IMG/VR virus record: IMGVR_UViG_3300035701_007101
Length of the DNA stretch: 64,000 nt
Origin: a virus
Lineage: Duplodnaviria > Heunggongvirae > Uroviricota > Caudoviricetes
Strand: one strand, 5' to 3'
Shown: positions 23,587 to 61,532 of the stretch, in pieces
Numbering within the stretch: position 1 is the first letter of the stretch
Layout: each line of letters begins with the position of its first letter
Notes under the pieces: model-generated
What the model was told of the DNA's origin: nothing
Databases searched by the model: none
The model's input: the letters and a program-made list of their open reading frames with translations, nothing else
Position numbers and translations under genes: made by a program

Positions 23587-24753
23587 ATGAAAGCAATTTA
23601 TGCATTTTCGGGTGATCCAATAACATTTGGTCACATTGATATTATAGAAAGAGCTGCTAAGGTTTTTACAAAAGTGTTAGTTTGTATTGGCAGTAATCCA
23701 GATAAAAAGTATATGTTTACACTTGAACAAAGATTGCAAATGGCCCAAGATGCATTGTCGTCAATTAAAAATGTTGACGTCAAATCTTTTTCAGGATTGC
23801 TTGTTGACTTTGCTTTTGAGCAAAACATTTCAGTTATAATAAAAGGTGTTAGAAATACTACAGATTTTGAATATGAAAATACTCTTCATGCTGTAGGCGA
23901 AAGTCAAAAATTAGGTATTGAAACATTTATATTGTTTGCAAAACCACAATTGGCTCATGTTAGCTCTAGTACAGTTAAGTCAATTCAAAAAGAACATGGC
24001 TTTATTCATGAATATGTTACATTGAATGTTAAAGAAGCTTTAGAGAAGCAGATGTCAAAACAGCTTATTATTGGTGTGACTGGTGAAATTGCTGCTGGAA
24101 AATCGTATGTAACTGATGCATTAGTTAGTTTGCTGGATAAGTCAAAAATTGAAGCTCATAATATTGATTTAGATATTATTGCACATGAAATATTAGGTAG
24201 TTTAAAATTGCCTCAATATGTTGAAGTTAGACACAAAATATCTGCTAGATTTGGTGAAACCATTAAGGATCTTTATGATTCTATTAATAGAAAAAAATTA
24301 GGAGCAATAGTGTTTAAGGATTCAAATGCTCTTAAAGATTTAAATGACATAATGAGAGATTCAATACTTGTAAGAATTAAAAGAGAATTAAATAACAAAG
24401 AAGGCATTATCTTTTTGAATGCTGCTTTACTTGTAGAAGCAGGTATGACAGATTTATGTAATAATAATGTGATTTTAGTTAAGTGTGACAAAGTTGTTCA
24501 GAGATCACGTCTTTACAAACGAGGCCTTTCAACTGTTCAATTAAATAAACGATTAAAATCTCAATATTCTTATGATGAAAAGAAAGCAGTTCTTGCTGAG
24601 AGAATAAGAGAACATAACAAATATACAGGTAATATATTTATTGTAGATACTTCAAAAAATGACTCTGACATTATAAATACTGCTAAATTATTATCAAATT
24701 TGCAAAGCGGTGATTCTAAAGGATTGTGGAAAAACAAATTTTTGACTTTATAA
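23587..24753 (+). CDS. Bifunctional phosphopantetheine adenylyltransferase / dephospho-CoA kinase (CoaD-CoaE fusion)
   Basis: N-terminal 'KAIYAFSGDPITFGHIDIIERA' is the PPAT (CoaD) signature (GTFDPIT.GH..I.ERA). C-terminal half has the P-loop 'IIGVTGEIAAGKSYV' and 'NIDLDIIAHE' typical of DPCK (CoaE). Confidence 0.7.
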   Translation: MKAIYAFSGDPITFGHIDIIERAAKVFTKVLVCIGSNPDKKYMFTLEQRLQMAQDALSSIKNVDVKSFSGLLVDFAFEQNISVIIKGVRNTTDFEYENTLHAVGESQKLGIETFILFAKPQLAHVSSSTVKSIQKEHGFIHEYVTLNVKEALEKQMSKQLIIGVTGEIAAGKSYVTDALVSLLDKSKIEAHNIDLDIIAHEILGSLKLPQYVEVRHKISARFGETIKDLYDSINRKKLGAIVFKDSNALKDLNDIMRDSILVRIKRELNNKEGIIFLNAALLVEAGMTDLCNNNVILVKCDKVVQRSRLYKRGLSTVQLNKRLKSQYSYDEKKAVLAERIREHNKYTGNIFIVDTSKNDSDIINTAKLLSNLQSGDSKGLWKNKFLTL

Positions 24754-24824
24754 CCCTCTATAACTCAGTGGTAGAGTGGCGTTCTCTAAAAATGCTGTCA
24801 TCAGTTCAAATCTGATTAGAGGGA
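24754..24824 (+). tRNA. Suppressor tRNA, anticodon CUA (reads UAG amber)
   Basis: Manual cloverleaf fold. Acceptor CCCTCTA/TAGAGGG (7 bp), U8, D-stem ACTC/GAGT with loop AGTGGTA, anticodon stem GCGTT/AATGC, loop C-U-CUA-A-A (anticodon at 24786-24788), variable 4 nt, T-arm ATCAG-TTCAAAT-CTGAT, discriminator A. No encoded CCA. Confidence 0.8.
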
Positions 24825-31058: not shown

Positions 31059-31265
31059 ATGTTTTTAATATTATTGGAAATTACTGTAGCGTGTATAGTG
31101 TTAATATTTTTTGTTACGCAATTAATTATACCTCTTTTTAGAGGAACTGTTTTCTTTCCTATGTTTAGAGAAGAGAGTGATTTAGAAACTAAATTACGAA
31201 AAACAAAGCAAAAGAAATTAGAGAAAAACTTGCAAGATGAAATTAAAAAAAATGAAAGCATATAA
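31059..31265 (+). CDS. Small single-pass membrane protein
   Basis: Hydrophobic N-terminus 'FLILLEITVACIVLIFFVTQLIIPLF', charged C-terminus. Stop overlaps the start of the SPFH gene. Confidence 0.35.
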   Translation: MFLILLEITVACIVLIFFVTQLIIPLFRGTVFFPMFREESDLETKLRKTKQKKLEKNLQDEIKKNESI

Positions 31266-32464
31266 TGTCAAAAAAACTATTAACAAATTTAAAGGAGAAG
31301 AGTATGTCACCGAAAACGATGGGTTTAACTGCTTTAGTTTCTATTGCATGTTTATTTTTTCTAATTTCATGTTTTAAATTGTTTGAAAATAATAATGCAA
31401 ATCAAATTATGTGTGTTCAAAGTCCTATACTTGGTAAATTAACATGGTACATTACTGCCGGCACTAAATGGCAAGGATTTGGAAAAATTACAAAATATGA
31501 TAAACGTTCTATTTATAATTTTTCATTACCAGTTAGATTTAATGATGCAGGACACGCCACTATGACTGGATCAGTTCAATTTGATATGTCATTATCTAAA
31601 GAACATCTTGATAAAGTACAATCTAAGTTTGGTACTGAAGAAGCTATAAAAACTCAATTGTTACAAACTGTAGTTAATAAGTGTTTGTATATGACTGGCC
31701 CAATGATGAGTAGTAAAGAATCGTATGCTGAAAAGAGAAGCTATCTAATTAATTATGTAGAAGATCAAATATCGAATGGCATTTTTAGGACTGCTATAAA
31801 AGATACTACAATTAAAGACCCTATTACAGGAGTAGATAAGATGGCTTCTTTAGTTGAAATTGTCACTGTAAACAAAATTCCTCAGCGTCAGGAAGAAGCT
31901 GTATTAAAAGAATTTGGAATTAGAGCATTTAACTTTTCTATTGAGAAATTAGATTATGACGAAACTGTTGAGAAACAAATACAGCAACAACAACAAATGA
32001 CAATGGCAGTACAGACGTCAATAGCTGATGCAAAGAGAGCAGAGCAAGCAGCTATTACTGCAGAAGCTAATGGAAAAGCAAATGCTGCTACTGCAAAATG
32101 GGAACAAGAAACTAATAAAGCTCGTGCTGTTACTATAGCTGAAAAAGATAGAGATAGTTGTAAATTAGTTATGGAAGCTGCAGCATTTAGGAAGCAAGCA
32201 AGTATATTGGAAGGCGAAGGAGAAGCTACTAAACGTCGATTGATATTACAGGCAGACGGTGCTTTATCCATTAAGCTCGACAAGTGGATTGAATCTCAAA
32301 AAGTATGGGCTGTAGCATTTGCAGCATATAAAGGTCAGATTGTTCCCACTACTGTCATGGGTGGAAATTTTAATGGTCAAAACGGTGCAACTACTTTTAT
32401 GGATATAATGGCTGCAAAAGCTGCTAAAGATTTATCTTTAGACATGAGTGTGCCAAATAAATAA
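31265..32464 (+). CDS. SPFH/band-7 (flotillin/HflC-like) membrane protein
   Basis: N-terminal TM segment, then Ala/Glu/Gln/Lys-rich coiled region 'AKRAEQAAITAEANGKANAATAKWEQETNKARAVTIAEKDRD...EGEGEATKRRLILQA' typical of the SPFH C-terminal region. Confidence 0.6.
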   Translation: MSKKLLTNLKEKSMSPKTMGLTALVSIACLFFLISCFKLFENNNANQIMCVQSPILGKLTWYITAGTKWQGFGKITKYDKRSIYNFSLPVRFNDAGHATMTGSVQFDMSLSKEHLDKVQSKFGTEEAIKTQLLQTVVNKCLYMTGPMMSSKESYAEKRSYLINYVEDQISNGIFRTAIKDTTIKDPITGVDKMASLVEIVTVNKIPQRQEEAVLKEFGIRAFNFSIEKLDYDETVEKQIQQQQQMTMAVQTSIADAKRAEQAAITAEANGKANAATAKWEQETNKARAVTIAEKDRDSCKLVMEAAAFRKQASILEGEGEATKRRLILQADGALSIKLDKWIESQKVWAVAFAAYKGQIVPTTVMGGNFNGQNGATTFMDIMAAKAAKDLSLDMSVPNK

Positions 32465-32538
32465 TTAATATTTGATAATGATAATGATAATTATGTTGTC
32501 TAAAACTAATTTTTCACAATTTTCAAAGGATTAAAACA

Positions 32539-32820
32539 ATGATGTCGATTTTTATTGGTAATCTTCCATTCTCATCAACTGAAGAATCTATTAAAAATCT
32601 CTTATCTACTTATAGCAATGTTATATCTATCAAAATAATTATTGATCGAGAAACAGGCAAATCGAAAGGTTTTGCTTTTGCTGAGGTTGATGATGGCGAT
32701 AAAGTGATTGCTAATCTTAATGGAACTGATTTTAATGGTCGAAAATTAGTAGTCAATCAAGCAAGACCAAAAGAAGATAAACCAAGAAATGACAATCGAA
32801 AACCGAATTATGTCAGGTGA
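32539..32820 (+). CDS. RRM-type RNA-binding protein
   Basis: RNP-2 'IFIGNL', RNP-1 'KGFAFAEV', 93 aa like bacterial Rbp proteins. Confidence 0.7.
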   Translation: MMSIFIGNLPFSSTEESIKNLLSTYSNVISIKIIIDRETGKSKGFAFAEVDDGDKVIANLNGTDFNGRKLVVNQARPKEDKPRNDNRKPNYVR

Positions 32821-32839
32821 CGCAAAACAAGTTATATAT
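32810..32839. repeat. 30-bp exact repeat copy A (ATGTCAGGTGACGCAAAACAAGTTATATAT)
   Basis: Identical 30-mer found again at 38673..38702. Here it spans the stop codon of the RRM gene. Confidence 0.7.
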
Positions 32840-33136
32840 TGAAAAGTAATAATTATTTTATAATTTCTAAAATAATACACGGTAGTGATTATCGGAAGTG
32901 CTCTTGGAGTTGTCTAGTTGTAAATAGAAACGTTGAAGAGAGAAGTTACTTTTGTAACGATCAATAGTAGAAATCGCTAGGACAATGAAGTTACATTAGA
33001 CACAAATGTAGCTTCATTATGTCATTATCATAGAATCACATCTGCTAAGCTATGATATGACGTAGATATTTCAAACATTCACAAATCATTGAAATTATTT
33101 CAATTGTTAAGGAGTTACATGTCAACGTAAAATATA

Positions 33137-34105
33137 TTGACTAAACTATTCATAAACTCATTTAAAAGGAGATTTATGGATAAAAGAAATTTCGTTGATT
33201 ACTCATTCGTTGACCCTATTCTTCTACAAAATCCTGAGATAACTTGGGCTGAATTTAATAAAATGTATTCAGTTAAAATGTCAGATGCTACATTTTACAA
33301 TAGGAAAAAATTTCTACTTAAAACGCTTGCAAATGAAGCTAATCCTTTAATTGATCAATCGCAAGACTTACTTACTCACTTTCACTTTCGACCTAATACT
33401 AAAACGTATGAATTAGTTAAAATGTTAATTGAGAAGCCTGAAGGCATTGATATTACTGCTGCTTCCGGTGCATTAAAGTTGAGTCAAAAGAACATTTGCG
33501 ACATTATTAGTCGTCTCAAGAATCGTAAACAAATGTCGATTGGTCATTCTGGCAATCTTATTTATATTAACAACACTAAATCAAAGCAACTAACAGTTGT
33601 CGAAAAGACTACGCAAGATCAATTATTGCCTAGCTCATTAGTGCCGGTTGAAAAGTTGCCGAGGCAGGGATCGTTAATGTATAAGATACTTGAATTATTA
33701 ATAGTTCATAAAGAGACGGGTATAAGTATTGATGAATTAAAGGGTCAATTAAAGGTCAAACGTACATCTATTTATTATCTTATTCATCACTTGAAGAAGA
33801 AAGGTATAAATATAAATTCAACACACGGTATTTATAAAATCAAAGTATCAAAAGCAATGGTGAAATCTCAGCAATTTGTTACAAAATCTGATGCATTGCA
33901 ATTTGTTACGAAATCTGATGCATTACCTTCACAAAACAAAATATTGTTGGAGCTTTCTAATTTAACAGATTCTGATTTGGGCGATGCACTTCAACACATA
34001 AAGTTGGCACGTTTTCATAGTGCTGTTTATCAAGCAATCATTGAATCAAACGCAATTGTAGTACGTTTAGAAAAAGAAATACAATCTGGACGTCAACTTA
34101 TATAA
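33137..34105 (+). CDS. Hypothetical protein with internal 27-bp tandem duplication (FVTKSDALQ x2)
   Basis: ORF. Direct repeat 'caatttgttacRaaatctgatgcattR' at 33872..33925. Confidence 0.45.
   Translation: MTKLFINSFKRRFMDKRNFVDYSFVDPILLQNPEITWAEFNKMYSVKMSDATFYNRKKFLLKTLANEANPLIDQSQDLLTHFHFRPNTKTYELVKMLIEKPEGIDITAASGALKLSQKNICDIISRLKNRKQMSIGHSGNLIYINNTKSKQLTVVEKTTQDQLLPSSLVPVEKLPRQGSLMYKILELLIVHKETGISIDELKGQLKVKRTSIYYLIHHLKKKGININSTHGIYKIKVSKAMVKSQQFVTKSDALQFVTKSDALPSQNKILLELSNLTDSDLGDALQHIKLARFHSAVYQAIIESNAIVVRLEKEIQSGRQLI
33872..33925. repeat. 27-bp tandem duplication inside ORF 33137..34105
   Basis: caatttgttacaaaatctgatgcattg / caatttgttacgaaatctgatgcatta. Confidence 0.6.
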
Positions 34106-34126
34106 AACCGTTGAAAGGAGCAGTTA

Positions 34127-34546
34127 ATGCAATCAATACAGTTGTTAACAGAAAATCAAAAACAAATTCAAGGTCTTTTGAAAGATCGCACGTATCTTCA
34201 TGCAAAAGAAATCGCTGAAGTTGTTGAAGTTCCTATAACAAGAGTATATTCGGCTATTAAGCAAATGAGGATAAGTGGCATTGGCGTGATGACTATCAAT
34301 AAAGGGTATGTGTTGTCGAACAAAGCTACAAAAAGAGACGACATTAATTTCACGCGACGGTTATATGGACGAAGAGCAAGCGATTTATTGGCTGTTATGG
34401 TCTGCAAAGATGATATTCAAAAGCGGTGGAACACTCCTCGCGATAGAGCAATGTTTCAGAAAATTACATCGCCATTACTTGTAAATTTGAGTAATTCAAA
34501 AGGTATGCAAGTTTTGTTGACTATTGAAAAGGAATTAAAAGACTAA
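34127..34546 (+). CDS. Hypothetical protein (possible HTH)
   Basis: 'LHAKEIAEVVEVPITRVYSAIKQMR' is HTH-like. RBS GGAG. Confidence 0.4.
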   Translation: MQSIQLLTENQKQIQGLLKDRTYLHAKEIAEVVEVPITRVYSAIKQMRISGIGVMTINKGYVLSNKATKRDDINFTRRLYGRRASDLLAVMVCKDDIQKRWNTPRDRAMFQKITSPLLVNLSNSKGMQVLLTIEKELKD

Positions 34547-35170
34547 ATGCCAAAAGTAAAAGTAAATGGCGAGATTTTTCTTGCTGCATGGCCAAAAGAA
34601 AGCGACAAAATAATTATAGCTGTTGCTAAAGCATATAAACGTGGTAAACTAATACAATGGCAATTAGCTGAATCTGAAGGTGCTCTCAATGGTGTTTTAA
34701 ATGTACCAATTAAAAAAATAAGATGTAGATACAATTTTTTGAGAGATAAAATAAAAATTTATGCTAAAAGAAGACTTCAAAAGCAAATCACTCGTGTAAG
34801 TAGTTATCACAATTTTAAAAGAAGATTAACTCTTCAATATGCTGCTGGTTACAATTCAAAAAGGACAAAATGGTTATTAAAAGATGAAATTTTACTATTA
34901 TGTCTTGCTAAAAAATATACAATAAATAACAGAATTAAATGGAAGCTTCTGGTTAATGATAAAAAAGTAAAAAAATTACCAACAAATAATATTAAATCAT
35001 TGTCACATACTTACAATAGATTTATTAATCTAGACGTTCATAGAAAGTCTGCTTTGAAATGGAAAAAGAAAAATCGACAAAGATTTAATGAGACTGTTCA
35101 AAAAAGATTAAAAAATAAAAGACAGCTTATACGACAATTTCTTTGGAATAAAATAGGAATAAGATCATAG
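34547..35170 (+). CDS. Highly basic (K/R-rich) hypothetical protein
   Basis: 207-aa ORF starting at the previous stop (TAAATG). Confidence 0.4.
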   Translation: MPKVKVNGEIFLAAWPKESDKIIIAVAKAYKRGKLIQWQLAESEGALNGVLNVPIKKIRCRYNFLRDKIKIYAKRRLQKQITRVSSYHNFKRRLTLQYAAGYNSKRTKWLLKDEILLLCLAKKYTINNRIKWKLLVNDKKVKKLPTNNIKSLSHTYNRFINLDVHRKSALKWKKKNRQRFNETVQKRLKNKRQLIRQFLWNKIGIRS

Positions 35171-35857: not shown

Positions 35858-36170
35858 AAATTTTGTGATTATCTTGCAAAAGGATAGTAATAGTTAGTCT
35901 ATGGTTACTCGATTAATGCATTATTACAGATGGTCTGATCGTGCCGGTAATGGCAATTAATTGCTACTCGTAACTCGGCGATTAAACACCATACTATTAC
36001 AAATTCGATAAGTGCGGGTGCACACGTGCGTGTATTAATTGGTAACCTGGACTTTTTAAAAACTTTTGGGGTATAGATCAACAGTTATGACTATGAAATA
36101 TATAGTTAATAATAATATAAATTATAGCAGTCGCATTTTATTTATACCATAGCTTTAAAAAGGAAAGAGT

Positions 36171-37148
36171 ATGAAAGCAAATTTAGCAAAACAAGATAAA
36201 AAGCGCTTTGTAATTATGTTAATTTGTCTCATTTTATTTTCATTGTGCTTTGCGCAAAAAGATTCAACAAGTGATAGTTCACACGTGCTATTACCAAAGT
36301 CAATCGGTCCAACAACTCTATTTCAAAAATCATCAAGATTTAGAATGCAAGAATATAATTATTTCCTTTTTGGTTTAAGTAAAAAAAGTCCTATAATGGA
36401 ATACAAAAATCAAGTTAAAATTTTATTTAGCATGAAATTTAATTTTTTTACTTTTACTTATGATTCATTATTAGTACTTGTTAAATTCAAAAAGATAACT
36501 AAAAATTTTAATTTATATAGAAGTTTAAACGTTGATATCGGCTATAGACAAAAAAGCTTCTGGAATATTTATGATGATTCTACTTCTCGTCCAATGTATG
36601 ACAATAATTACTCACCCTCTTTCTATCTTTCATGGATAACTTACATCAAAAAAATATCATTACCAATTTCAATATTAGCAGGCTATGTTCACGAATCAAA
36701 CGGTGGAGCTACTTTTTTAAACCCATATTGTCCGGCAATATCAAGAAGTTGGGATAGAATTTATTTAGGCGCAAGCGCAGGAAATTTACAAACAAATCTT
36801 GTAACATTTCAATTAGATATGTGGGTACCTTTTGGTCTTGAAGAAAATACTGATATATATAAACATTATGGAATTGGTGAAATAACTTTGTACTATCAGC
36901 CATTTTTCAAATATCAACATTCATTATCAAATTTTGGTCTATCATTTACGTGGAAAATAGCTAGTGAAAATTTCAACAATGCTGAACTTAGCTTATTTTT
37001 CAGTCCCTTTCAATTTGCTAAAAACAAAATTCTACGATTATTCACGCCCACATTTTATTCTCAACTATATTTAGGAAGCGGTGAGAATTTAATTGATTAT
37101 CAAACTAGACATATTTCTTTTAGAATCGGTTTAGCTACGTTATTTTAA
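36171..37148 (+). CDS. pldA: Outer-membrane phospholipase A (OMPLA, PldA family)
   Basis: Signal peptide 'KRFVIMLICLILFSLCFA'. Catalytic block 'GYVHESNGGATFLNPYCPAISRSWDRIY' vs E. coli 'GYNHDSNGRSDPTSRSWNRLY'. C-terminal 'YSQLYLGSGENLIDYQTRHISFRIGLATLF' vs E. coli '[32 protein letters not shown]'. Terminal Phe of an OM beta-barrel. Confidence 0.8.
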   Translation: MKANLAKQDKKRFVIMLICLILFSLCFAQKDSTSDSSHVLLPKSIGPTTLFQKSSRFRMQEYNYFLFGLSKKSPIMEYKNQVKILFSMKFNFFTFTYDSLLVLVKFKKITKNFNLYRSLNVDIGYRQKSFWNIYDDSTSRPMYDNNYSPSFYLSWITYIKKISLPISILAGYVHESNGGATFLNPYCPAISRSWDRIYLGASAGNLQTNLVTFQLDMWVPFGLEENTDIYKHYGIGEITLYYQPFFKYQHSLSNFGLSFTWKIASENFNNAELSLFFSPFQFAKNKILRLFTPTFYSQLYLGSGENLIDYQTRHISFRIGLATLF

Positions 37149-37304
37149 GGTCATAGAATGAATGTAAAATGCATTTCAACGATAGTAAAAATACTCTATA
37201 ATGGCAAATTGTTTGACCATAATCAAGTACTTAATTACAAAAACAGATTTTGACTTGTCTATGTGAATTTAGTTGACTATAATAATAGTTCGATAGGTAG
37301 TTGT

Positions 37305-37470
37305 AAGAAATAAAGGGTTACTTTTATGATTAGTATGCAGCGTTCATTAGGTGTGCGACAGTTTTCCTTCGAGGGAAACCCATGGTACGCGAACTCGAAG
37401 ATACCGCGTATGGTGTCTTATTCGTTGCTGAAAATTATGAAGTAACCCTTTTTACAATAACGTCAAAATT
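37305..37470 (+). ncRNA. Structured intergenic element (candidate ncRNA / leader) upstream of the NadD-like gene
   Basis: 12-bp closing stem AAAGGGTTACTT ... AAGTAACCCTTT enclosing about 115 nt with nested complementarity (TTCGAG/CTCGAA, TACGCG/CGCGTA). GC content above the local background. Confidence 0.3.
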
Positions 37471-37496
37471 ATTTTAAGATCATAGAACTAGATTAA

Positions 37497-38429
37497 ATGA
37501 AAATTTCAAATATTCATTCATTAATGACAAGAATACAAACTGTATTTATTGATAATTTTGGTTTTACACCATTACGTCAAAGAAATCAAGACATACTCAC
37601 AGAAGCTATTGAGATATCAAGGTTTTCATCGACTGCTAATCTCAAAGAAGAACATGGTGATTTATTGTGCAGCCTTTTAATGAGTTTCAAAGAAAACGGT
37701 TGGGACCCTGTTGAATGTGTTGAAGCAACATTAAATAAAATTGAAAGAAGAAAAAGTCAATATCAAGCATACGGTCGAAAATTGTCAATAGCTATTTTAG
37801 GTGGTGCGTTTGACCCAATTACTGTGGGCCATATTGCAGTCGCTGAATTTCTATTAAATGCTAGCTCACAATTCGACGAAGTCTGGATAACACCCTGTCG
37901 TAAGCATTTATTTAATAAAAAATTAGCAGATGCTGAGTATAGATTAGAATTATGCAGATTAGCAACAAAGCATGATAGACGTATAAAAGTTTGGGATTAT
38001 GAAATTAAACATAAACTTGGCGGTGAAACTTACAATCTTGTTAAACGATTATTAGCAGATAAAGAATATTATGATAAATATAGTTTTTCAATTGTAATAG
38101 GCATGGATAATGCAAACACTTTCAATCAATGGATGAATTTTGAACATCTTGAACGATTAATACCATTTGTTGTTGTTACTAGAAGTGGTATAGAGATAAA
38201 GCATGAAAGTAATTGGTATTTAAAGTCACCGCATAAGTTTCTTGTGCCAGAGAAACCATTGCCTGAAGTTTCATCAACAATTATTAAAGCTGATTTATGC
38301 ATATATTATAATATTTTTAAATCAGCGGGTGCTAGTTTAGGTAAAGAAAATCCATTAATAAATCGATTGAAAAATAATTTGAATCCTGAAGTTTTTGCGT
38401 CAATTATAAAAAATGAGGCATATAAGTGA
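37497..38429 (+). CDS. Nicotinate/nicotinamide mononucleotide adenylyltransferase-like protein (NadD/NMNAT family) with about 95-aa N-terminal extension
   Basis: 'LSIAILGGAFDPITVGHIAVAE' ((H/T)xGH nucleotidyltransferase motif as in NadD 'GGTFDPIH.GH'). C-terminal 'VSSTIIK' (NadD 'ISST.IR'). Confidence 0.55.
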   Translation: MKISNIHSLMTRIQTVFIDNFGFTPLRQRNQDILTEAIEISRFSSTANLKEEHGDLLCSLLMSFKENGWDPVECVEATLNKIERRKSQYQAYGRKLSIAILGGAFDPITVGHIAVAEFLLNASSQFDEVWITPCRKHLFNKKLADAEYRLELCRLATKHDRRIKVWDYEIKHKLGGETYNLVKRLLADKEYYDKYSFSIVIGMDNANTFNQWMNFEHLERLIPFVVVTRSGIEIKHESNWYLKSPHKFLVPEKPLPEVSSTIIKADLCIYYNIFKSAGASLGKENPLINRLKNNLNPEVFASIIKNEAYK

Positions 38430-39296: not shown

Positions 39297-39369
39297 AGAA
39301 AATTTGCTCAATTGGTAGAGCGAAAGATTTAGGATCTTTACGTTGTTGGTTCAAATCCGACATTTTCAT
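39297..39369 (+). tRNA. tRNA with anticodon UAG (Leu codon CUA/CUG by standard rules) but class-I (short variable arm) structure; A1-A72 mismatch
   Basis: Manual fold. Acceptor AGAAAAT/ATTTTCA (6 bp plus 1-72 mismatch), D-arm GCTC-AATTGGTA-GAGC, anticodon stem AAAGA/TCTTT with loop UU-UAG-GA, variable 5 nt, T-arm GTTGG-TTCAAAT-CCGAC. Confidence 0.5.
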
Positions 39370-39604
39370 CCAAACGTTTTATTCAATTTCGCCCTTCTTT
39401 TAATAAAAATTCTGTTGATACATGAGGTTAAACTCATGGTTTTAAAGGGTGCTGGTGAAAAGTCATGATTCCTCCTCGCCCTTTATTTTAAAGGTATAAA
39501 AATTATGAAAATGACAACGAACTTCACTTTTAATTGTAGCAGTTGCTTTAATAGTAGCAACTCAGTGAGGTTCATTTTCTAATTATTCCATTATAGAACA
39601 ACTA

Positions 39605-39643
39605 GAAAAAAGGGCCTCACCTAAAAAATGAGGCCCTTTTTTT
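39605..39643. terminator. Strong bidirectional terminator hairpin
   Basis: GGGCCTCA-cctaaaaaa-TGAGGCCC flanked by an A run 5' and a T run 3'. Confidence 0.55.
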
Positions 39644-40169
39644 ATTGAGAAAAACTATGAAAATGTATATTTTAAGGTATTTGTTTGATATGAATATTAA
39701 ACAATCTAAAAACTTTATTTTAAAGAAATCCCATACCTCAATTTGGAATTTTTTACTTGTAATTTCTAATTTAATGTTTTTATTAAAAACAACATTATCA
39801 CTAAATTCTTCCAATGACTTAGGGATAACAACAATAAATTCATTTAAATTTAAATTACAAGAAAACTATGTACTAAACGCATTTTTAATTTTACATATTT
39901 AAGATTCATAAAGTGAAGATTGTAATTTTTTAAAACTTTGAAATTGTATAAATGAATATGAGTTATGAATTAAAATTAAGTTTTGGTATGATGTGCAGGA
40001 AACAAAACTATTTGAGTTCTTTACAAGGATATGAGATTTTGTCGTGTTCAGAAATATTAAAACGTTATACTATTGTAAAACACGAAAATGATTATGATTT
40101 GGTAGACAATTTGGATTTGTTAGTTGAGTTTTTATATAAGAATATATTTTGAAAATTAGTGTAGTCGCC

Positions 40170-40241
40170 GCCGCCTTAGCTGAGATGGATTAGCGCAAGC
40201 CTGAAGAGCTTGAGAGCACAGTTCGATACTGTGAGACGGCA
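40170..40241 (+). tRNA. tRNA-Phe (anticodon GAA)
   Basis: Manual fold. Acceptor GCCGCCT/AGACGGC (one C-A mismatch), D-arm GCTG-AGATGGAT-TAGC, anticodon stem CAAGC/GCTTG with loop CU-GAA-GA, variable AGAG, T-arm CACAG-TTCGATA-CTGTG, discriminator A. Confidence 0.6.
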
Positions 40242-40252
40242 TTTGAAATCAT

Positions 40253-40327
40253 AGATAGGTACGCAAATTGGCACGCGGCAGGATTGTTACTCCTGTGATT
40301 TTGGGGGTTCGACTCCCTCCCTATCTG
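40253..40327 (+). tRNA. tRNA-Asn (anticodon GUU)
   Basis: Manual fold. Acceptor AGATAGG/CCTATCT (perfect), D-loop AATTGGCA, anticodon stem CAGGA/TCCTG with loop UU-GUU-AC, T-arm GGGGG-TTCGACT-CCCTC, discriminator G. Variable loop is 7 nt by this fold and needs a software check. Confidence 0.55.
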
Positions 40328-40488
40328 TTATTTTAATTATGGAGAAGTATAGGCAATGGATAATAATGCTTTTATAAATTTTCTAATGGAAAGTAGTCGG
40401 ATATTGGTTTGCCGAAGCTATCTGCTAAATAGTTGTTCAATAAAATGAACTGAAAGTTCAATTCTTTCACTTTCCGTTAGGAGATTTT

Positions 40489-41631
40489 ATGTATAAATGC
40501 AATGATTGTAAATTAGATTTTAAAAATCGATCACAATTAGCAAATCATTTTAGATGGAAACATAAACAATGTTTAATTTTCAAATGTAATAAATGCAACA
40601 AAGAAATAACAGATAAAAGCGGTTTGACGATTCATGAAAAATTTTGTACAGGTGTTAAAGAAAAGAAAAACAATATTTGTCCAAAATGTAACTTTACAAT
40701 TAAAACAAACTATAAGAAACATGTTGTTTCATGTAATGGGTTAGGTCCTCGTCGATTAAGAACAAAACATCGCGAGAGAGTTGTTTTAACAAAAGAAAAT
40801 ATTGAAATAATTAGAAAACAATATGATGATAATGTGCCATTAAAAATTATTAGACAGCAAAATAAGTTTTCAAAATTACAAGTTAGACATGCATTAAAAG
40901 GATATAAGAAGCGATCAAAGTCAGACGTTATTAAAAGAAGTCACAAAGAAGGTAGAATGTGCAGACTGCAATTTCACGAATCTTTTGCTGAAAAGTTTTT
41001 TAATGACTTTTTACAAAAATCAGGATATAAATTAGGATTGGATTATATTCGTGAATATAGAGTTTCTTATTATCGAATTGATTTCTTTTTTCAAAATTTG
41101 AATATAGCAATAGAAGTAGATGGATCACAACATTATACATATAATCATCAAATAGAAATTGATAAAAGAAAAGATCAATTATTGAATAATCTTGGTATTA
41201 AAGTAATAAGGTTACCTTGGAAAGTGGTTTGTAATGAGTCAAAAAATACATTAAATGAGGTACTAGATATTATTAAAAACAAAAATGTTGATGAATTTAA
41301 TAATAAACAGAAAATTAAATTAGCAGATTTATTAAAAAAACGAAAAGAAACAAAGAAAAAGCAAAAACAAAGAAAGAAAAATTTGCCAAAAAAATACATT
41401 GAAAAATTAATAATTGCATTAAATAAATGCATTGTATATAAAACATATATGAAGCGCATGAATGATTTAAACAATGTTGATTTAAAAAAATGGGGAACTA
41501 TTTCTGAGCTTTCAAATTTATGGAATGTTTCTCATACTCAGGTTAGACGATATATTGAAAAACATTGTTTGTTAGAAAAATCAAAGACGGTGTGGCAGAG
41601 TTGGTACATGCTACGGTCTGCAAAACCGTAA
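40489..41631 (+). CDS. C2H2 zinc-finger + DUF559/Vsr-like (PD-(D/E)xK) endonuclease-domain protein; candidate tRNA-associated homing-type endonuclease
   Basis: Three C2H2-like fingers ('YKCNDCKLDFKNRSQLANHFRWKH','FKCNKCNKEITDKSGLTIHEKFC','CPKCNF...HVVSC'). 'YRIDFFFQNLNIAIEVDGSQH...LGIKVIRLPW' matches the DUF559 pattern. The 3' end overlaps tRNA-Cys by 46 nt. Confidence 0.5.
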   Translation: MYKCNDCKLDFKNRSQLANHFRWKHKQCLIFKCNKCNKEITDKSGLTIHEKFCTGVKEKKNNICPKCNFTIKTNYKKHVVSCNGLGPRRLRTKHRERVVLTKENIEIIRKQYDDNVPLKIIRQQNKFSKLQVRHALKGYKKRSKSDVIKRSHKEGRMCRLQFHESFAEKFFNDFLQKSGYKLGLDYIREYRVSYYRIDFFFQNLNIAIEVDGSQHYTYNHQIEIDKRKDQLLNNLGIKVIRLPWKVVCNESKNTLNEVLDIIKNKNVDEFNNKQKIKLADLLKKRKETKKKQKQRKKNLPKKYIEKLIIALNKCIVYKTYMKRMNDLNNVDLKKWGTISELSNLWNVSHTQVRRYIEKHCLLEKSKTVWQSWYMLRSAKP

Positions 41632-41658
41632 ACGTCGGTTCAAATCCGATCACCGTCT
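41586..41658 (+). tRNA. tRNA-Cys (anticodon GCA)
   Basis: Manual fold. Acceptor GACGGTG/CACCGTC perfect, D-loop with GG, anticodon stem ACGGT/ACCGT with loop CU-GCA-AA, T-arm GTCGG-TTCAAAT-CCGAT, discriminator U (Cys identity element). Confidence 0.7.
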
Positions 41659-41842
41659 CTTTTTAAATCAATTCTACGATAAATCACATGATTATAATAA
41701 TAAAGGAGGATATTTGACATTATTATAAACTTTTCAAGGAGGTTTTTATAAGATCTATGTGATTAGTTTATTGTTATCTTGTCAGTTTACTGGCTAGATA
41801 TCGTTCTAAAACGAAAATTAACAATTAACGAAGGGATTAAAA

Positions 41843-44858: not shown

Positions 44859-45506
44859 TTAGAACGTGGCGCTGCACCGGCGTCTAATTTCATCAATTAA
44901 CCATTTTCTAGCATTAGTCTGCTGCACAAGTTTATGATTCATGTTGATTTTTTCAATAAATTCTTTGTATGATATTTTTTCAAATGTATAAATAGCTGAT
45001 TCAAGTGAAACATTGTATATCTTACTCAAACTATTTTTGTAGACTTCATAATAAGCATTGCCTCTTAAATATGCTTTCTCATTTTGTTTTCCTCTATGCT
45101 CTACATCATGAAAGTGACTTTTATTATTAATAAATCTACCATCATATCCCAATAAATATATTTCTTTAAATTGTAATGCAATACCCACTGATAAGGCAAA
45201 CAAACCCACTAAATAAGGACTATACATGCCATCTTTAAATCCATTAGTATTATATTGTTTTGACGTTTTTAATGTAATGAAATCATCAGGAACTGACAAA
45301 ACTTTTTTTGTTATTTTCAATGCTTTATTATTTAGTATTTGTTGTTTATTGTTTTGAGAAAAATCTTTATCGACCCAAACAATAGCTGTCGGCTCATAAA
45401 AATGACATACAAAATTTAATCCAAACGTTATGTGATTATTTAATGTATGCAAATCAAAACTATCTATGCTAGAACCACCACCAATTATTATTAGCTTTTC
45501 ATTCAT
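44859..45506 (-). CDS. Hypothetical protein, co-oriented and overlapping with the large glycosyltransferase gene (possible accessory enzyme)
   Basis: 8-nt overlap with 45499..48771. Confidence 0.45.
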   Translation of the reverse strand: MNEKLIIIGGGSSIDSFDLHTLNNHITFGLNFVCHFYEPTAIVWVDKDFSQNNKQQILNNKALKITKKVLSVPDDFITLKTSKQYNTNGFKDGMYSPYLVGLFALSVGIALQFKEIYLLGYDGRFINNKSHFHDVEHRGKQNEKAYLRGNAYYEVYKNSLSKIYNVSLESAIYTFEKISYKEFIEKINMNHKLVQQTNARKWLIDEIRRRCSATF

Positions 45507-48500
45507 TTTTTAATCTTCTTGATGCTTGAAAGTGTTCAATTACAGGCTTATCTGCATCTTTCATTGTGTCAAAGATTTGACAATATGCAGGAGATAAAAT
45601 GTAAGTTTTCAAATTTTGCAATGAATTAACTGCTTCATGAAGATAGGATTGATCTAATTTATATTTTTTATTATTGCTATTAACTAACTGTTTCCATTTT
45701 TCTAACAATTCAAAAGCTTTTTGAGTATAATTGAAATACATAGTACCGCCAAGCAGCTCGCTAGTGTTATTTCTTTTCATTCTTAAGTGATATGCAAAAT
45801 CATATTTATCTAACTTAAATAATAACTCAGGCTGTTGTTGAATTATTGCATCACAATCAACCCATACTACAGGACATCTATGCTTATTTAGCATGTCTTT
45901 AACAAATTCAGTTCTATAAAAACAATTTGCAAACCAACTACCCTGTGAGTTAATACCAATTATTTCATAATTCAATTTAAATTTTTTCAATGATAATTCT
46001 AAAGTTTTGTATTCTTTTTCATAGCCTGTATTTTTAGTATAATAAGACACAAACACTAAGTTAGAAGTCGGTTGTTCTAGTTGACGTGTAACTTGTTTTG
46101 ATTCAACAATTGGTTGAATTTGTTCAATCTCTTTAAATGTGGTTTGTTCAAATTGAATATCTAAATTTTTAAAATCTATATTCTTACGATTAGGTAACAA
46201 ATTAATAAAATCATTACTCATATTTTCAATCTCTTTAAATTTATTTTGCATTACTAATTGAAAAGTGTTATCCCATAATTTCTGAGTGACTGACCAACTA
46301 AAAAACTTTTCAATGTGTTGTCTATTTCTTTCGCCAGTTTGTCGTCTTAATTGAAGATTGTTTTTCAATAACAATAACTTTTCATTCATTTCTTTTATTA
46401 CTTGATCATCAGGTGTCACTGACACTATCCATTGCTCGTCTAATAGCATACAGATACTGCCAACTTTAGTTGAAACAACTGGCAATCCGCAAGCCATTGC
46501 TTCTAATACTACTCTTGGCATACATTCACTTATGCTTGTTAAAATTAATACATCAATTGAATTGTAAAAGTCTTTCATTTTGTCTAATGTTTGACCATCA
46601 ACAAAGTATTGCTTTCCCCAGTCACTCTTTTTTTCAACTTTAAAATCTAATTGATCTAATAAATAAGGTCTTTTTACATCTCTGATGCAGCCTGCCCAAC
46701 CAACAATAAAACTATTTGATTTTTTATTAGAAGGAATAAAGTAATTAGTATCAATAGCTTCAGGTAAGAAAATTACTGACTTGTTAGGATACATTTGTCT
46801 CAAAAAATCCAGATGTTGAATCGAAATTGAGACTATTATGTCAGGCTCAGGTTCGTATTTCATTTTACATTCGCCGCCATAGCCGCCAATTATTTTCACA
46901 TTCTTTTGTTTTAATTGTGTTATCAATTGCTGACATCTAGTATAATCTATATTCGGTGAATGTATGTACACTACATCAGCGCTTAAAGTTGTTACATCTA
47001 GTAATCTTTTATATTCAATGTTATGAGTTGAATATTTTTGTTGATCTTTTGCAATAAAATAATATGCCCAACCGAACTGGTCAATTATTTTACAAATAGT
47101 AAGTTTTTTGTTTTGTAAGGTTGGTTTCTGTTGAATATTTTGAACATTTTTTTTAGTAGGTACATATTCATTCCAATTTCTAAAACATAACTTGCATGTG
47201 TCATTCATTTTATTTGGCTCACAGAGACTGTCTCTTAAATTGCTGGCATAGTCATTTTGCCAGACAATATTATCTTTTATGGTTCCGTGTTCTTTTGCAG
47301 GCGCAAAGACGGAACCACAAAATGAAACGCTTCCGTTACCATTTATGCCAATTGTTGTCCACGGTATTTGACAATTACATCTTATTTCATTTCGTTGTAT
47401 TAATGTAGGATAAAGCTTGATAATGTCAGCTTCTGGTAGATTTTGCAATTCGTCAATTTCTTTTTTATCATTATACGTTAATACTTCATTCCAAAAATTT
47501 TCATCATCATAATTGACAGCTAAGTGAGGTAATAAATTTAATAAATGAACTGTTTTAACACCATGATCTTTTACTAATTTTAAAAATTCAGGAACATATT
47601 TCAAATTACTTTTCGTGCAAACATAAGAACAAAATGTATTAAGATCATTACTTATACAAAAATCAATGCCTTGTAAGACTTTTTGAAATGTATTTGAATT
47701 ATTTATTTTATTATGTAGTTTTGCATTTGGTGCATTTAAGCTAATCGATATATAATCAGGTTTTGCATTAAGTAATTCATTAGCTCTATCAATTATTAAT
47801 GACCCATTGGTTATTAGACCCACAATTTTATTTTTATTTTTCAAATGGTTAATAATTTGAAATAAATTTTGATTTAGAAATGGTTCACCATACCCTGCAC
47901 AACAAAAACTTTTTAAACTATCAAATTTAGATAATAAATTATTGACAGTTTCAATAGTTAAGTCAGGCGCTTGTTCAATTAGATTTGTATTTCTGTAGCA
48001 AAAATTACAATTAAAGTTGCATTTTGAAGTTAAGTATAAATTTGCATTTATAGGCATTTGTAAGAAGCTACGTGCACGTTCAAAGCTTCGATGATGACAT
48101 CTAAAATCTTTTTCACCAATTTGTATGTTATCATTAATCAAACTAGTGTATATTCCAAGAAATGCATATAAGTTATTTTCGGAAGGATTAGATTTTAATA
48201 TATTCCATAATTTTAGCGGTAAATCAGCAATCCATATATATTTGAATTGCTTAAATTTGTCCATTAAATTATAATAACGTTCAAATATACCTTCATTTGA
48301 CCATTGTGGAGCATGTTTGCCAACTATATTTTTAAATAATTTAATTAAATATCCATCTTGTTTAAGTCTGTCAATTTGTTCAACTTCACAAGACATTGAT
48401 TCTAAATTATATGGATATTTTTTGAGAATATCATGCTTGTAAATTTTTACGCCCGAGATTTCAAAGTCAAGATGAACATCAATTAAATTACAAATTATAA

Positions 48501-48771
48501 TGGCAGTTTTATTATTAGATTGCTTAGCGAAATTATAGAGTGTTTCAATGCCATTTTCATTCATAACCATATCTTCATCTATTTCAATATAATATGACGT
48601 TTTACAAGAGTCAATCATTAATTGAAAAGCTGCAGACATTGGATGAACATTTTTAATAATTTCAATATTGAACGTGAGCGTTTGCTGTTGCAATGCTTTT
48701 ATACATTCATTATAGCACGGATTTTCCCCACAGCTAATTACAAAAACAGTTAAGTCTTTAGCAAAGTTCAC
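45499..48771 (-). CDS. Multi-domain enzyme: GT2-like glycosyltransferase + radical-SAM (with extra Cys cluster, SPASM-like) + GT4/GT1-like glycosyltransferase
   Basis: N-terminal 'VFVISCGENPCYNECIKALQQQT' (GT-A-like). 'CNFNCNFCYRN' CxxxCxxC radical-SAM cluster followed by 'CNCQIPW...CGS' and 'CEPNKMNDTCKLC'. 'ILTSISECMPRVVLEAMACGLPVVSTKVGS' is the GT4 E-x7-E signature. Confidence 0.65.
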   Translation of the reverse strand: MNFAKDLTVFVISCGENPCYNECIKALQQQTLTFNIEIIKNVHPMSAAFQLMIDSCKTSYYIEIDEDMVMNENGIETLYNFAKQSNNKTAIIICNLIDVHLDFEISGVKIYKHDILKKYPYNLESMSCEVEQIDRLKQDGYLIKLFKNIVGKHAPQWSNEGIFERYYNLMDKFKQFKYIWIADLPLKLWNILKSNPSENNLYAFLGIYTSLINDNIQIGEKDFRCHHRSFERARSFLQMPINANLYLTSKCNFNCNFCYRNTNLIEQAPDLTIETVNNLLSKFDSLKSFCCAGYGEPFLNQNLFQIINHLKNKNKIVGLITNGSLIIDRANELLNAKPDYISISLNAPNAKLHNKINNSNTFQKVLQGIDFCISNDLNTFCSYVCTKSNLKYVPEFLKLVKDHGVKTVHLLNLLPHLAVNYDDENFWNEVLTYNDKKEIDELQNLPEADIIKLYPTLIQRNEIRCNCQIPWTTIGINGNGSVSFCGSVFAPAKEHGTIKDNIVWQNDYASNLRDSLCEPNKMNDTCKLCFRNWNEYVPTKKNVQNIQQKPTLQNKKLTICKIIDQFGWAYYFIAKDQQKYSTHNIEYKRLLDVTTLSADVVYIHSPNIDYTRCQQLITQLKQKNVKIIGGYGGECKMKYEPEPDIIVSISIQHLDFLRQMYPNKSVIFLPEAIDTNYFIPSNKKSNSFIVGWAGCIRDVKRPYLLDQLDFKVEKKSDWGKQYFVDGQTLDKMKDFYNSIDVLILTSISECMPRVVLEAMACGLPVVSTKVGSICMLLDEQWIVSVTPDDQVIKEMNEKLLLLKNNLQLRRQTGERNRQHIEKFFSWSVTQKLWDNTFQLVMQNKFKEIENMSNDFINLLPNRKNIDFKNLDIQFEQTTFKEIEQIQPIVESKQVTRQLEQPTSNLVFVSYYTKNTGYEKEYKTLELSLKKFKLNYEIIGINSQGSWFANCFYRTEFVKDMLNKHRCPVVWVDCDAIIQQQPELLFKLDKYDFAYHLRMKRNNTSELLGGTMYFNYTQKAFELLEKWKQLVNSNNKKYKLDQSYLHEAVNSLQNLKTYILSPAYCQIFDTMKDADKPVIEHFQASRRLKNE

Positions 48772-61000: not shown

Positions 61001-61160
61001 TTTTAATGAGGCTAATTATGTAGTCTTGTAAATTTTGAACATTGACATTTGTTAATTCTCTTTCAAGTGCTTGAATATATTTATCATTTTCATGTAATGA
61101 TAGTTCTTTTAATTTTTTCTCACACAAATATTGAATAAAATCAATTTTTTTTATATCCAT
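58074..61160 (-). CDS. dnaE: DNA polymerase III alpha (DnaE) C-terminal part: palm, fingers, OB; carries an in-frame mini-intein; begins with a 90-aa non-DnaE leader
   Basis: 'FPDIDSDFS' (catalytic Asp pair, vs E. coli PDFDVDFC), 'KFDILGLKTL', 'ALGRPGPLDMGMHHEYAQRKNG', 'GFNRSHAVAYTVLSYQMMWFKEYYALEFY' (vs [27 protein letters not shown]). The intein interrupts between 'FQFE' and 'SNLMKALL'. Confidence 0.8.
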   Translation of the reverse strand: MDIKKIDFIQYLCEKKLKELSLHENDKYIQALERELTNVNVQNLQDYIISLIKNKVKVKTHGSLMYYLLNISSTDPIKNNIVLKIKKQSSFPDIDSDFSMNERELVIKYFIDKYGNDHVAPIGSYGQMKMKMVLRDIARIFDIDIQDTNDVVKNLADDVDEMSEEVFDATLMIESGQDGFRQDLYDIKQYLGRHPQIREILFKLKGQLRHLTKHPAGVVATPTKIDETIPLMRHKNELITSWVDGIIRKDLQSSGFIKFDILGLKTLSIIKEILDIIRSTKSYNDKADFDLRSIEHKQITSLFYEEFSSKLPLDGNNTIYSKFRQTDTNGIFQFECIDGNSWVGSYRIKNLYDMFEKNKKSIHKVSCVNLNPSTRKMKIRQKIFAMKKQVRDVYRVTVQYDNDRCIETALLHEFYTPRGWKRLEELKVDDKILIDQERFRCQHYCAFYNRSVDVQGIAENCASCIRSGQRTCRPQLLSKFRPIKTYKKDYILRRVWKKGKVKVKIYKRFARHMFRYIYVPIKAIQFVGTKEVYDIGFDPEAINHNYIANGFVVHNSNLMKALLKEIKPTTFSDITTATALGRPGPLDMGMHHEYAQRKNGKEFNYESKLVEKCLKSSYGILVYQEDVMRLCHMVAGFPLDLTDTVRKNLMKSIRDTDAKDKEAKQRKEIHDKFIKGCISVGDLIETSAEILWQSCVAFARYGFNRSHAVAYTVLSYQMMWFKEYYALEFYVVLLSNSLKEKFTSYFAEIISHGISIVPANISRAKEGFSIYGEEKSIMFGLGHINHVGPAVINNILQSQPFDSFEDFCEKTSQIKKITKTAMIALISGHAFDAFGTQNEILEKYYKEIRKEKKWERDVDYNDTKYEHEQFIDAYALDWRTKLSDSQKREVAKLKAVMLTNFTQPKVNMKATVWGVASEIVEKTSKANNSYYYVTLTDSKFNMVKVRIPCYNRRCSSAFLLKQETGKYAKVKVQEVIKVDNILVGEAVASEYMGRIFIDLLDICCVGNLYERTPEQKEKLAKYDEMANE
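59496..60155 (-). mobile_element. Mini-intein (220 aa) inside DnaE, with Cys-rich insertion; no LAGLIDADG/HNH motif seen
   Basis: Begins 'CIDGNSWV' (block A, Cys1). Ends 'VYDIGFDPEAINHNYIANGFVVHN' followed by Ser+1 (canonical blocks F/G). The flanking sequences re-join to a conserved DnaE stretch (FQFE|SNLMKALLKEI... equivalent to E. coli FQLES-RGMKDLIKRL). Confidence 0.7.
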
Positions 61161-61177
61161 TATTATCCTTATGCTTT

Positions 61178-61510
61178 TTAATTGTCGAGAGTTACAATTT
61201 TTACTTTTCTCGACGTTAATAGCGTTTGAAGATCAATATTAAAGGTGTTGTAATCTAGAATCCAACATTTTTTATCTATGAAAGTGTCGCCGTCAATATC
61301 AAATTGCTTGAAATAAATAGCTTGCCATGAAATTGATTTATTCAAAGTTGTATTACAATACATTAATAATGATGAAAAACTTTCAAGCATTATCATGGAG
61401 CTAAATTTTTGTATAAAATAGTCAAACCACATATTTCGTTGTTTGATGCCTGTAAGTTGTACAAAATCAAATAACGTTAAATTTTTATCAACAATAAACA
61501 TTATTTTCAT
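61178..61510 (-). CDS. Hypothetical protein
   Basis: ORF between the DnaE parts. Confidence 0.35.
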   Translation of the reverse strand: MKIMFIVDKNLTLFDFVQLTGIKQRNMWFDYFIQKFSSMIMLESFSSLLMYCNTTLNKSISWQAIYFKQFDIDGDTFIDKKCWILDYNTFNIDLQTLLTSRKVKIVTLDN

Positions 61511-61532
61511 AATTTAGATCTCATCATTAACA

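Follow-up and report, generated by a model that had tools for sequence, protein, structure and literature searches.

Does a tailed phage encode its own outer-membrane phospholipase A (OMPLA), and if so, what could the enzyme do during infection? The question is raised by a 64,000-nucleotide stretch of DNA, here called the window, from the IMG/VR virus record IMGVR_UViG_3300035701_007101 (Caudoviricetes). A preliminary description had proposed that the open reading frame (ORF) at positions 36171–37148 encodes a phage OMPLA, and our analysis bore this out at exactly these coordinates. The ORF, which we call PLA1, lies on the plus strand, starts with ATG at 36171, ends with TAA at 37146–37148 and comprises 325 codons. 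An in-frame TAA is present upstream, and a Shine-Dalgarno (SD)-like ribosome-binding site, AAGGAAAGAG, directly precedes the ATG (36160–36169); SD-type motifs are common in the window. PLA1 is a complete gene whose composition matches that of the window (30% guanine plus cytosine, GC), and its assignment as a PF02253 homolog of 325 amino acids (aa) is based on the ORF, matches to Pfam and PDB, the predicted fold and the ratio of nonsynonymous to synonymous substitution rates (dN/dS).

The predicted PLA1 protein matched the Pfam family PF02253 (Phospholipase A1) with 83.9 bits (E = 1.8e-23; profile positions 65–256 of 257), far above the gathering cut-off of 27 bits, as the preliminary description had anticipated for such a profile search. 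It also matched the OMPLA chains of Escherichia coli and Salmonella in PDB (E = 3e-10 to 1.4e-9). With the PldA equivalog model (NCBIfam NF008031/PRK10763) the protein scored 62 bits against a cut-off of 369 and failed. Since PF02253 was passed and the equivalog model was not, the window protein is a member of the Phospholipase A1/OMPLA family that falls below orthologue-grade PldA. Identity to E. coli PldA was approximately 27%, and the sequence alignment covered only the C-terminal two thirds, so that the close alignment to E. coli PldA described earlier was overstated. We consider it highly probable that the gene product is an OMPLA and is catalytically competent.

Competence was judged from the active-site residues in an alignment with E. 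coli PldA, whose reference sequence was consistent with the PDB alignment and with the expected letters at every numbered position. The motif HESNG (residues 174–178; 36690–36704) holds the catalytic His174 and Ser176 and the oxyanion-hole Gly178, equivalent to E. coli H142, S144 and G146, and was invariant in 15 of 15 aligned sequences. In the motif SRSWDRIY (residues 191–198; 36741–36764), assigned by alignment, Ser191 is the Ca2+ ligand (E. coli S152) and Asp195 the third residue of the triad, where E. coli has Asn156 (SRSW-N-RLY instead of SRSW-D-RIY). The Asn within HESNG aligns to E. coli Asn145, which is not a triad residue. Of the intact His-Ser-Asn block claimed previously, the His and the Ser are thus conserved, but the third residue is Asp195 and the triad is His-Ser-Asp. 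Asp or Glu occupied this position in all members of the clade to which the window protein belongs, and the 138 members of the wider family with a recognizable motif had Asn in 90 cases, Asp in 41 and Glu in 4. Asp195 is, to judge from these alignments, a common natural variant of the family and no defect, and would give a classical Ser-His-Asp triad. The Ca2+-site residues Ser152 and Ser106 of E. coli correspond to Ser191 and Ser139, and the dimer-interface residues Gln94 and Tyr114 to Gln127 and Tyr147; all four were invariant across the clade. A further Ca2+ ligand, the R147 carbonyl, belongs to the main chain and lies outside what a sequence comparison covers. The residues for dimerization-gated catalysis are all conserved, with Asp195 replacing Asn156, and the enzyme is predicted to be active.

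The fold and the export signals point the same way. An AlphaFold2 model built on a 14-sequence alignment consisted of an N-terminal helix (residues 3–26), a disordered linker and an all-beta barrel, with a mean predicted local distance difference test (pLDDT) score of 68 and a predicted template modeling (TM) score of 0.65; most strands scored 75–90. When the model was compared with PDB by Foldseek, the top eight matches were all OMPLA (E = 1e-9 to 1e-8; TM 0.64–0.70 on the target), and the matches ranked below them were unrelated barrels (E > 0.008). The OMPLA-type barrel is a prediction of the model. A predicted Sec signal peptide occupies residues 1–28 (36171–36254), with a basic n-region, the hydrophobic core VIMLICLILFSLCF and C-F-A followed by Gln. 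The N-terminus reads MKANLAKQDKKRF-VIMLICLILFSLCF-A/QKD, a Sec-signal layout with no lipobox, in which the hydrophobic segment of residues 9–32 has a Kyte-Doolittle value of 2.02; the clade relatives have equivalent N-termini. At the other end, the C-terminal strand FRIGLATLF (37119–37145; the last strand, 314–322, in the model) closes the protein as RIGLATLF with a terminal Phe, and 12 of 13 clade sequences end in an aromatic residue, P0010 having Leu instead. A terminal Phe is the usual recognition signal for outer-membrane barrel assembly. The signal peptide with its cleavage site and the C-terminal assembly signal were assigned by inspection. The predicted signal peptide and beta-barrel, the C-terminal strands and the terminal aromatic residue agree with the preliminary description, and since a beta-barrel that depends on the beta-barrel assembly machinery (BAM) requires an outer membrane, its conclusion that the host is a diderm also holds.

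Two insertions set the window protein apart from most of the family. The first is an extended beta2-beta3 hairpin (approximately residues 93–120; 36447–36530), recognized from anchor spacing and the model, which has a Lys-rich tip, KFKKITKNFN. The spacing between the invariant anchors K83 and Y125 is 42 residues, and was 38–43 in 12 of 13 clade members, compared with a family mode of 22–25. The extension was modeled as two strands of 24–26 residues (pLDDT 81–90). It probably protrudes on the periplasmic side, because the equivalent turn in E. coli OMPLA is one strand-length away from the outer-leaflet-facing Ser106 and the active site. The other insertion is a 12-residue active-site loop, GATFLNPYCPAI (36705–36740), which is specific to the subclade of the window protein and P0001–P0003. 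Among the 138 family members, this loop had 5 residues in 124 and 12 residues in 4; the region was of low confidence in the AlphaFold2 model.

A word-indexed search of 5.8 billion proteins detected 13 relatives, 12 of them at 45–92% identity and one, distant and GC-rich, at 28%. When 1.84 billion cluster representatives were searched exhaustively with a profile, 2326 PLA1 proteins were returned; the score was 476 bits for the representative of the clade, 289 for a single outlier and 216 or less for all others. In a neighbor-joining analysis of 171 sequences, the clade was monophyletic in 82% of 200 bootstraps, and in 92% when the outlier P0014 was included. Neither a clade member nor any protein above 33% identity was found in genomes representing approximately 185,000 bacterial and archaeal species, one genome per species. 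IMG/VR held one clade member, on an 80-kb viral genome of a sister lineage. The clade was seen only on phage-like metagenomic contigs, where it was spread over at least five gene contexts with no relation to one another: the window type (the syntenic contigs L008, L009 and L091–L093), L001–L003, L004–L007 with L010, L097, and L098. Each of these five contexts was gene-dense, with many small ORFs of unknown function and phage-type genes. The context of L011 was ambiguous, and P0014, the nearest outgroup, is known from a 2-kb contig whose context gives no information.

Within the flanks compared, PLA1 was essentially the only gene that the other lineages shared with the window, and the GC content of the clade lineages ranged from 29% to 46%; PLA1 therefore behaves as a mobile accessory gene. 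An IS605-type TnpB gene was located near PLA1 in two cases. The gene is under purifying selection: each of six pairwise comparisons gave a Nei-Gojobori dN/dS of 0.10–0.15, at dS values that began at 0.30 and reached saturation.

We then asked whether such a protein had been recorded in phages before. PHROGs contained no family for the window PLA1 protein. A tblastn search of 50,697 GenBank phage records produced five matches, none of which came from a bona fide phage. Contig H4 of the Acinetobacter ‘phage MD-2021a’ is a fragment of a bacterial chromosome carrying ilvA, rpiA and trkG; its sister contig H5 and two Salmonella whole-genome shotgun records were judged bacterial from titles and annotation only; and the fifth, an ‘UNVERIFIED’ 4.3-kb fecal contig, has a canonical PLA1 beside a glycosyltransferase gene and a tetratricopeptide repeat gene. 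In BFVD, a database of predicted viral protein structures, no protein with the OMPLA fold was detected at E ≤ 0.001, while OmpW-, porin- and autotransporter-like barrels from uncultured phages are present there. Full-text literature searches found no report of a phage-encoded OMPLA, nor was one mentioned in two surveys of jumbo phages, a comparative genomic overview and a 2026 review. The family itself is familiar; the novelty lies in a divergent OMPLA clade that is restricted to phages, has its own structural insertion and is carried on phage genomes of jumbo size.

The phage nature of the window is indicated by its gene content. Besides PLA1, it encodes a DnaE-type polymerase, DnaB, a DnaC-like loader, UvsX, a UvsY-like protein and a gp32-like single-stranded DNA-binding protein (SSB), together with an NAD-dependent DNA ligase, an RNA-ligase-like protein, PolX-PHP, an exonuclease, an FtsK-like ATPase and six tRNAs. 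The window constitutes the replication module of what looks like a phage genome; within its 64 kb we saw no cellular housekeeping gene and no capsid, portal or terminase gene. Megablast with 15 kb of the window detected no deposited phage relative at the DNA level, and the DnaE polymerase was 26–30% identical to polymerases of assorted phages. A metagenome contig of 261,940 bp from the Joint Genome Institute (JGI 3300035659, Ga0373628_0000021) encodes an identical PLA1 protein, as do several shorter contigs with the same gene order. The source samples are 3300035659 and SRR11721628 for the window phage and SRR23086375 for the close relative P0002. The phage-type genes and this contig together led us to accept the genome as that of a phage of jumbo-phage size, a conclusion that is well supported, though short of proof. 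Several PLA1-carrying phage lineages were found together in one sample series.

A more precise host than a diderm was considered, and Bacteroidota were rejected as host or origin. The restriction of PLA1 matches to Bacteroidota in a genome scan reflected the peptide patterns used, and the distances of Bacteroidota PLA1 to the window protein (1.67–2.13) were equally great as that of E. coli PldA (1.88). The strong use of SD-type motifs, which occurred upstream of 45% of window genes against a background of 6%, opposes a typical Bacteroidota host, and Gln at position +1 after the signal peptide, considered as a sign of Bacteroidota, was inconsistent across the relatives.

What, then, might the enzyme do? 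Cellular OMPLA is an inactive outer-membrane monomer that dimerizes with Ca2+ when phospholipids reach the outer leaflet (PMC9743053). It is activated by phage-induced lysis, among other events, and its products damage the outer membrane (PMC11457642). Phages are known to deal with outer lipid layers in their own ways, those of mycolata with the lipolytic LysB and those of Proteobacteria with spanins (PMC5707550, PMC8309991). We propose that infected cells would produce the phage OMPLA and export it through Sec, and that the host BAM would place it in the diderm outer membrane, where it would wait as an inactive monomer like its cellular counterpart. Perturbation of the envelope by holin and endolysin at the end of infection would bring phospholipids to the outer leaflet and act as the trigger. 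Dimerization with Ca2+ would then lead to cleavage of outer-membrane phospholipids into lysophospholipids and fatty acids, and the weakened outer membrane would help large virions to escape. The phage OMPLA would thereby be an enzymatic, trigger-dependent disruptor of the outer membrane, adding to or replacing functions of the spanin type. With the residues for gated catalysis conserved and export and assembly signals present, a pre-loaded OMPLA that fires late is the most economical model. PLA1 need not be a late gene under this model, because the latency of the monomer would make non-late expression harmless. Our data show the family, the fold, the conserved catalytic, Ca2+ and dimer residues, the export signals, the phage context and purifying selection; localization, latency, the trigger and the contribution to lysis are what we infer, and we put the lysis mechanism forward tentatively, as having somewhat less than an even chance of being correct. 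The occurrence of endolysin-like peptidase genes a few genes from PLA1 in two lineages, M23 in L001 and M15_3 in L097, lends a lysis role weak support. The preliminary description had also considered an entry lipase. This is unlikely: a Sec-exported, BAM-assembled integral barrel made in the infected cell is hardly a virion component, because such a membrane-embedded protein cannot readily join a tailed virion.

Several observations weigh against a role in lysis. No recognizable lysis cassette surrounded PLA1 in any lineage, and no holin or spanin-like neighbor was seen. In the window, PLA1 lies among replication, regulatory, tRNA and NAD-metabolism genes, and in L004/L010 it sits among small accessory ORFs. 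Scans for promoters, terminators and shared upstream motifs were uninformative. The window covers 64 kb, whereas the genome measures at least 262 kb and may well encode ordinary spanins in the remainder, and the great rarity of PLA1 means that it is dispensable for most phages. E. coli pldA mutants are reported in older literature to lyse still after T4 infection, OMPLA being at most an accessory there. A more far-reaching form of the proposal is that the clade constitutes a phage-specific, enzymatic class of outer-membrane disruptors beside spanins, disruptin and LysB, in which a silent, pre-loaded monomer would be triggered at lysis and the basic hairpin, probably reaching into the periplasm, would couple activation to the loss of peptidoglycan after endolysin action; we regard this as unlikely.

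The gene content around PLA1 would fit a phage that preserves the outer membrane of its host. During a long infection, while host expression is shut down, the phage OMPLA might remove stray phospholipids from the outer leaflet and so keep the barrier intact, possibly also releasing the fatty-acid signal that raises lipopolysaccharide synthesis; the virus factory would thereby be protected until lysis. Genes of a host-maintenance type are located nearby (an NMNAT-like enzyme, tRNAs, an SPFH protein and a CTP_transf-like/CoaE fusion) and lysis genes are not; the conserved dimer and Ca2+ residues imply substrate-gated regulation as in the housekeeping enzyme; cellular OMPLA maintains lipid asymmetry (PMC9743053); and jumbo phages carry many host-function genes (PMC7824862). 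A diderm host, however, probably has its own OMPLA or Mla system, and since a stable outer-membrane protein should outlast one infection cycle, it is hard to see what a phage would gain from its own copy. The great divergence of the clade from cellular enzymes and its own hairpin insertion suggest a specialized function and not a substitute for the host enzyme; we judge housekeeping, the main rival of the lysis model, rather unlikely. Altered outer-membrane lipids or vesicle shedding could instead remodel the cell surface, blocking superinfection or the adsorption of progeny to debris. Jumbo phages commonly alter host surface molecules and so exclude rivals (PMC7824862), the status of OMPLA affects vesiculation (PMC9743053), and PLA1 is, as exclusion genes often are, a mobile accessory gene with variable neighbors, sometimes beside IS605-type TnpB. 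This explanation is improbable: OMPLA neither destroys nor masks any known class of receptor, and our data offered no direct support.

Slightly less probable again is a moron that, expressed from a prophage or pseudolysogen, would serve lysogenic conversion or host fitness by aiding colonization, acid or bile tolerance, or hemolysis, effects reported for PldA of pathogens. Phage-encoded outer-membrane barrels are typically morons, as in the case of lambda Lom, and the OmpW- and porin-like proteins of uncultured phages in BFVD would fit this pattern. PLA1 has its own ribosome-binding site and long flanking intergenic regions, and PldA is a colonization factor of Helicobacter (PMC11457642). Yet the 64 kb showed neither an integrase nor a repressor module, the set of DnaE, UvsX, UvsY-like protein and gp32-like SSB is typical of large virulent phages, and the lack of a clade copy in the genomes of approximately 185,000 species leaves no known prophage copies. 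Finally, the window might be cellular or plasmid DNA, or a chimeric assembly, with an ordinary bacterial pldA. The lack of capsid, portal and terminase genes would agree with this, the ‘tail/Hoc-like’ matches in the window being to Ig-like repeats only, and several ‘phage’ database records with pldA did turn out to be bacterial. Against it stand the identical gene order in independent JGI and Logan assemblies, phage-type genes on both sides of PLA1, a sister lineage that is an IMG/VR viral genome, the absence of the clade from the cellular genomes scanned and a PLA1 composition that matches the window (30% GC). We consider a non-phage origin very improbable.

The surroundings of PLA1 were inspected further. 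Its neighbors in the window are helix-turn-helix regulators, PolX, the NMNAT-like enzyme and tRNAs, and the neighborhood is not conserved between lineages. In L097 (4747–6424), a papain-like Peptidase_C1 gene is immediately upstream of PLA1, and the endolysin-type M15_3 peptidase gene is 4.4 kb upstream. In L098 (2594–6548), an IS200/IS605 TnpA-TnpB pair is immediately upstream and a gene for a patatin-like phospholipase is located 2 kb upstream. A T4-late-like sequence, TATAAATT, at −55 of PLA1 was rejected as a shared signal. The contig L091 (262 kb), with the identical PLA1, lacks several window genes from 31265–35170, namely those for an SPFH/Band-7 protein (31265–32464), an RRM-like ORF (32539–32820) and 139-aa and 207-aa proteins (34127–35170); L093 has the last two, which L091 lacks. 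These differences indicate strain-level gene flux around PLA1.

Two non-coding elements (35903–36047 and 37316–37447) bracket PLA1. Their GC content is 41–43%, compared with 30% for the window; both are closed by a GGTTAC...GTAACC stem, of which there are only two such pairs in 64 kb, and their predicted RNA folds were far better than those of shuffled controls (z = −4.0 and −5.9). Rfam gave no match for them even at E ≤ 1, neither was similar to the other or recurred in IMG/VR, and both were absent from the syntenic relatives L008 and L009. On these grounds (Rfam, IMG/VR and the syntenic relatives) we rejected them as part of PLA1 function; they are possibly small RNAs or remnants of a mobile insertion. 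A 19-nucleotide direct repeat, TTATTTTAAG(G/A)TCATAGAA, at 37140–37158 and 37469–37487 encloses the 330 bp that separate PLA1 from the gene that follows. This spacer is 128 bp in L009, and in L008 it holds a 111-aa ORF that is reduced to approximately 31 codons in the window. The region looks like the site of an insertion or replacement event.

Directly downstream, at 37497–38429, is the NMNAT-like gene, a cytidylyltransferase-like gene with a weak MazG-like N-terminus. Another cytidylyltransferase-like gene, at 23587–24753, is annotated as a CTP_transf_like and CoaE fusion in a twin contig, a possible fusion for coenzyme A biosynthesis. The two are cofactor-metabolism auxiliary genes. A tRNA cluster (Leu, Phe, Asn, Ser and Cys; 39297–41659) is broken by a 380-aa ORF (40489–41631) with a C2H2 zinc finger and a DUF559/REase-like domain, whose 3′ end overlaps tRNA-Cys (41586–41659); it looks like an insertion of the homing-endonuclease type. 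At 24754–24824 is a suppressor-type tRNA with the anticodon CTA, called tRNA-Pyl by ARAGORN and scoring 60 bits with the Rfam tRNA model. Recoding of TAG was considered and rejected for the window: coding coverage rose only from 75.4% to 76.5% with TAG as sense, and TAG is the stop codon of 6 of the 37 long ORFs. Late genes in other parts of the genome may be the only ones recoded; recoding is irrelevant to the PLA1 ORF, with its TAA stop and upstream in-frame TAA.

Elsewhere in the window, the DnaE polymerase gene (minus strand, 58074–63885) is split into an N-terminal part (63001–63885) and a main part (58074–61160), which are separated by an ORF of unknown function (61533–62162) and the RNA-ligase-like ORF (62141–62923). 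A 1383-aa Ig-repeat protein (6473–10624) matched PHROG ‘tail’ and ‘Hoc-like decoration’ families through its repeats only, and shared 31% identity over 281 aa with a giant protein of 2530 aa adjoining PLA1 in L001. A 1090-aa fusion of radical-SAM and GT1 glycosyltransferase domains is encoded on the minus strand at 45499–48771; radical-SAM genes also adjoin PLA1 in the L004/L010 lineage.

OMPLA is a textbook host enzyme, long known to be activated in the course of phage lysis; the title of one review calls it an enzyme of ‘known structure, unknown biological function’ (Dekker 2000, cited in PMC9743053). That a phage copy is kept under purifying selection implies that control of outer-membrane phospholipid hydrolysis is directly valuable to the virus. 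If the role in lysis is true, no enzymatic disruptor of the outer membrane would have been known before PLA1 in phages of Gram-negative-type hosts, and the enzyme could be considered as a partner that permeabilizes the outer membrane for endolysin-based antibacterials; if the role in maintenance is true, PLA1 would add a new kind of auxiliary gene for the host envelope to those of jumbo phages. Whichever role applies, PLA1 marks its host as a diderm.

Among known systems, the nearest in structure is PldA of E. coli and Salmonella (PDB 1QD5, 1QD6 and 7EZZ), which shares with the window protein the family, the fold, the H-x-S-N-G motif, the Ca2+-site serines, Gln94/Tyr114, the signal peptide and the C-terminal Phe. 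The window protein differs in its level of identity (approximately 27%), in Asp for Asn156, in a 12- rather than 5-residue loop, in a much longer beta2-beta3 hairpin and in a distinct N-terminal segment (IGPT..F..S.RF motif), and it is encoded by a phage and not by a chromosome. LysB is a mycolyl-arabinogalactan esterase and a soluble, cutinase-like alpha/beta hydrolase, whereas the window protein is an integral beta-barrel. The gene for LysB belongs to a lysis cassette and its product cleaves a lipid-wall linkage; PLA1 lies outside a cassette and its product would cleave glycerophospholipids. As a phage lipolytic enzyme directed against the outer lipid barrier of the host, mycobacteriophage LysB is still the closest functional precedent for a disruption of the outer layer by an enzyme at lysis (PMC5707550, PMC8309991). 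With spanins (Rz/Rz1 and u-spanins) and disruptin the window protein may share an end result, in that the outer membrane, the final obstacle to virion release, is cleared away, but it is unrelated to them in sequence and structure. Spanins work through membrane fusion, disruptin works as a cationic peptide, and none of them is an enzyme or forms a beta-barrel. The outer-membrane barrels of other phages (lambda Lom and the OmpW-, porin- and autotransporter-like proteins) are, like the window protein, host-type accessory proteins that depend on Sec and BAM, but they are non-enzymatic and mostly morons of temperate phages, and none with the OMPLA fold was found in BFVD (E ≤ 0.001). Bacteriocin release proteins, and phage infections that activate the OMPLA of the host, use OMPLA activation to permeabilize the outer membrane (PMC11457642). 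These systems rely on the host enzyme, whereas the window phage brings its own copy.

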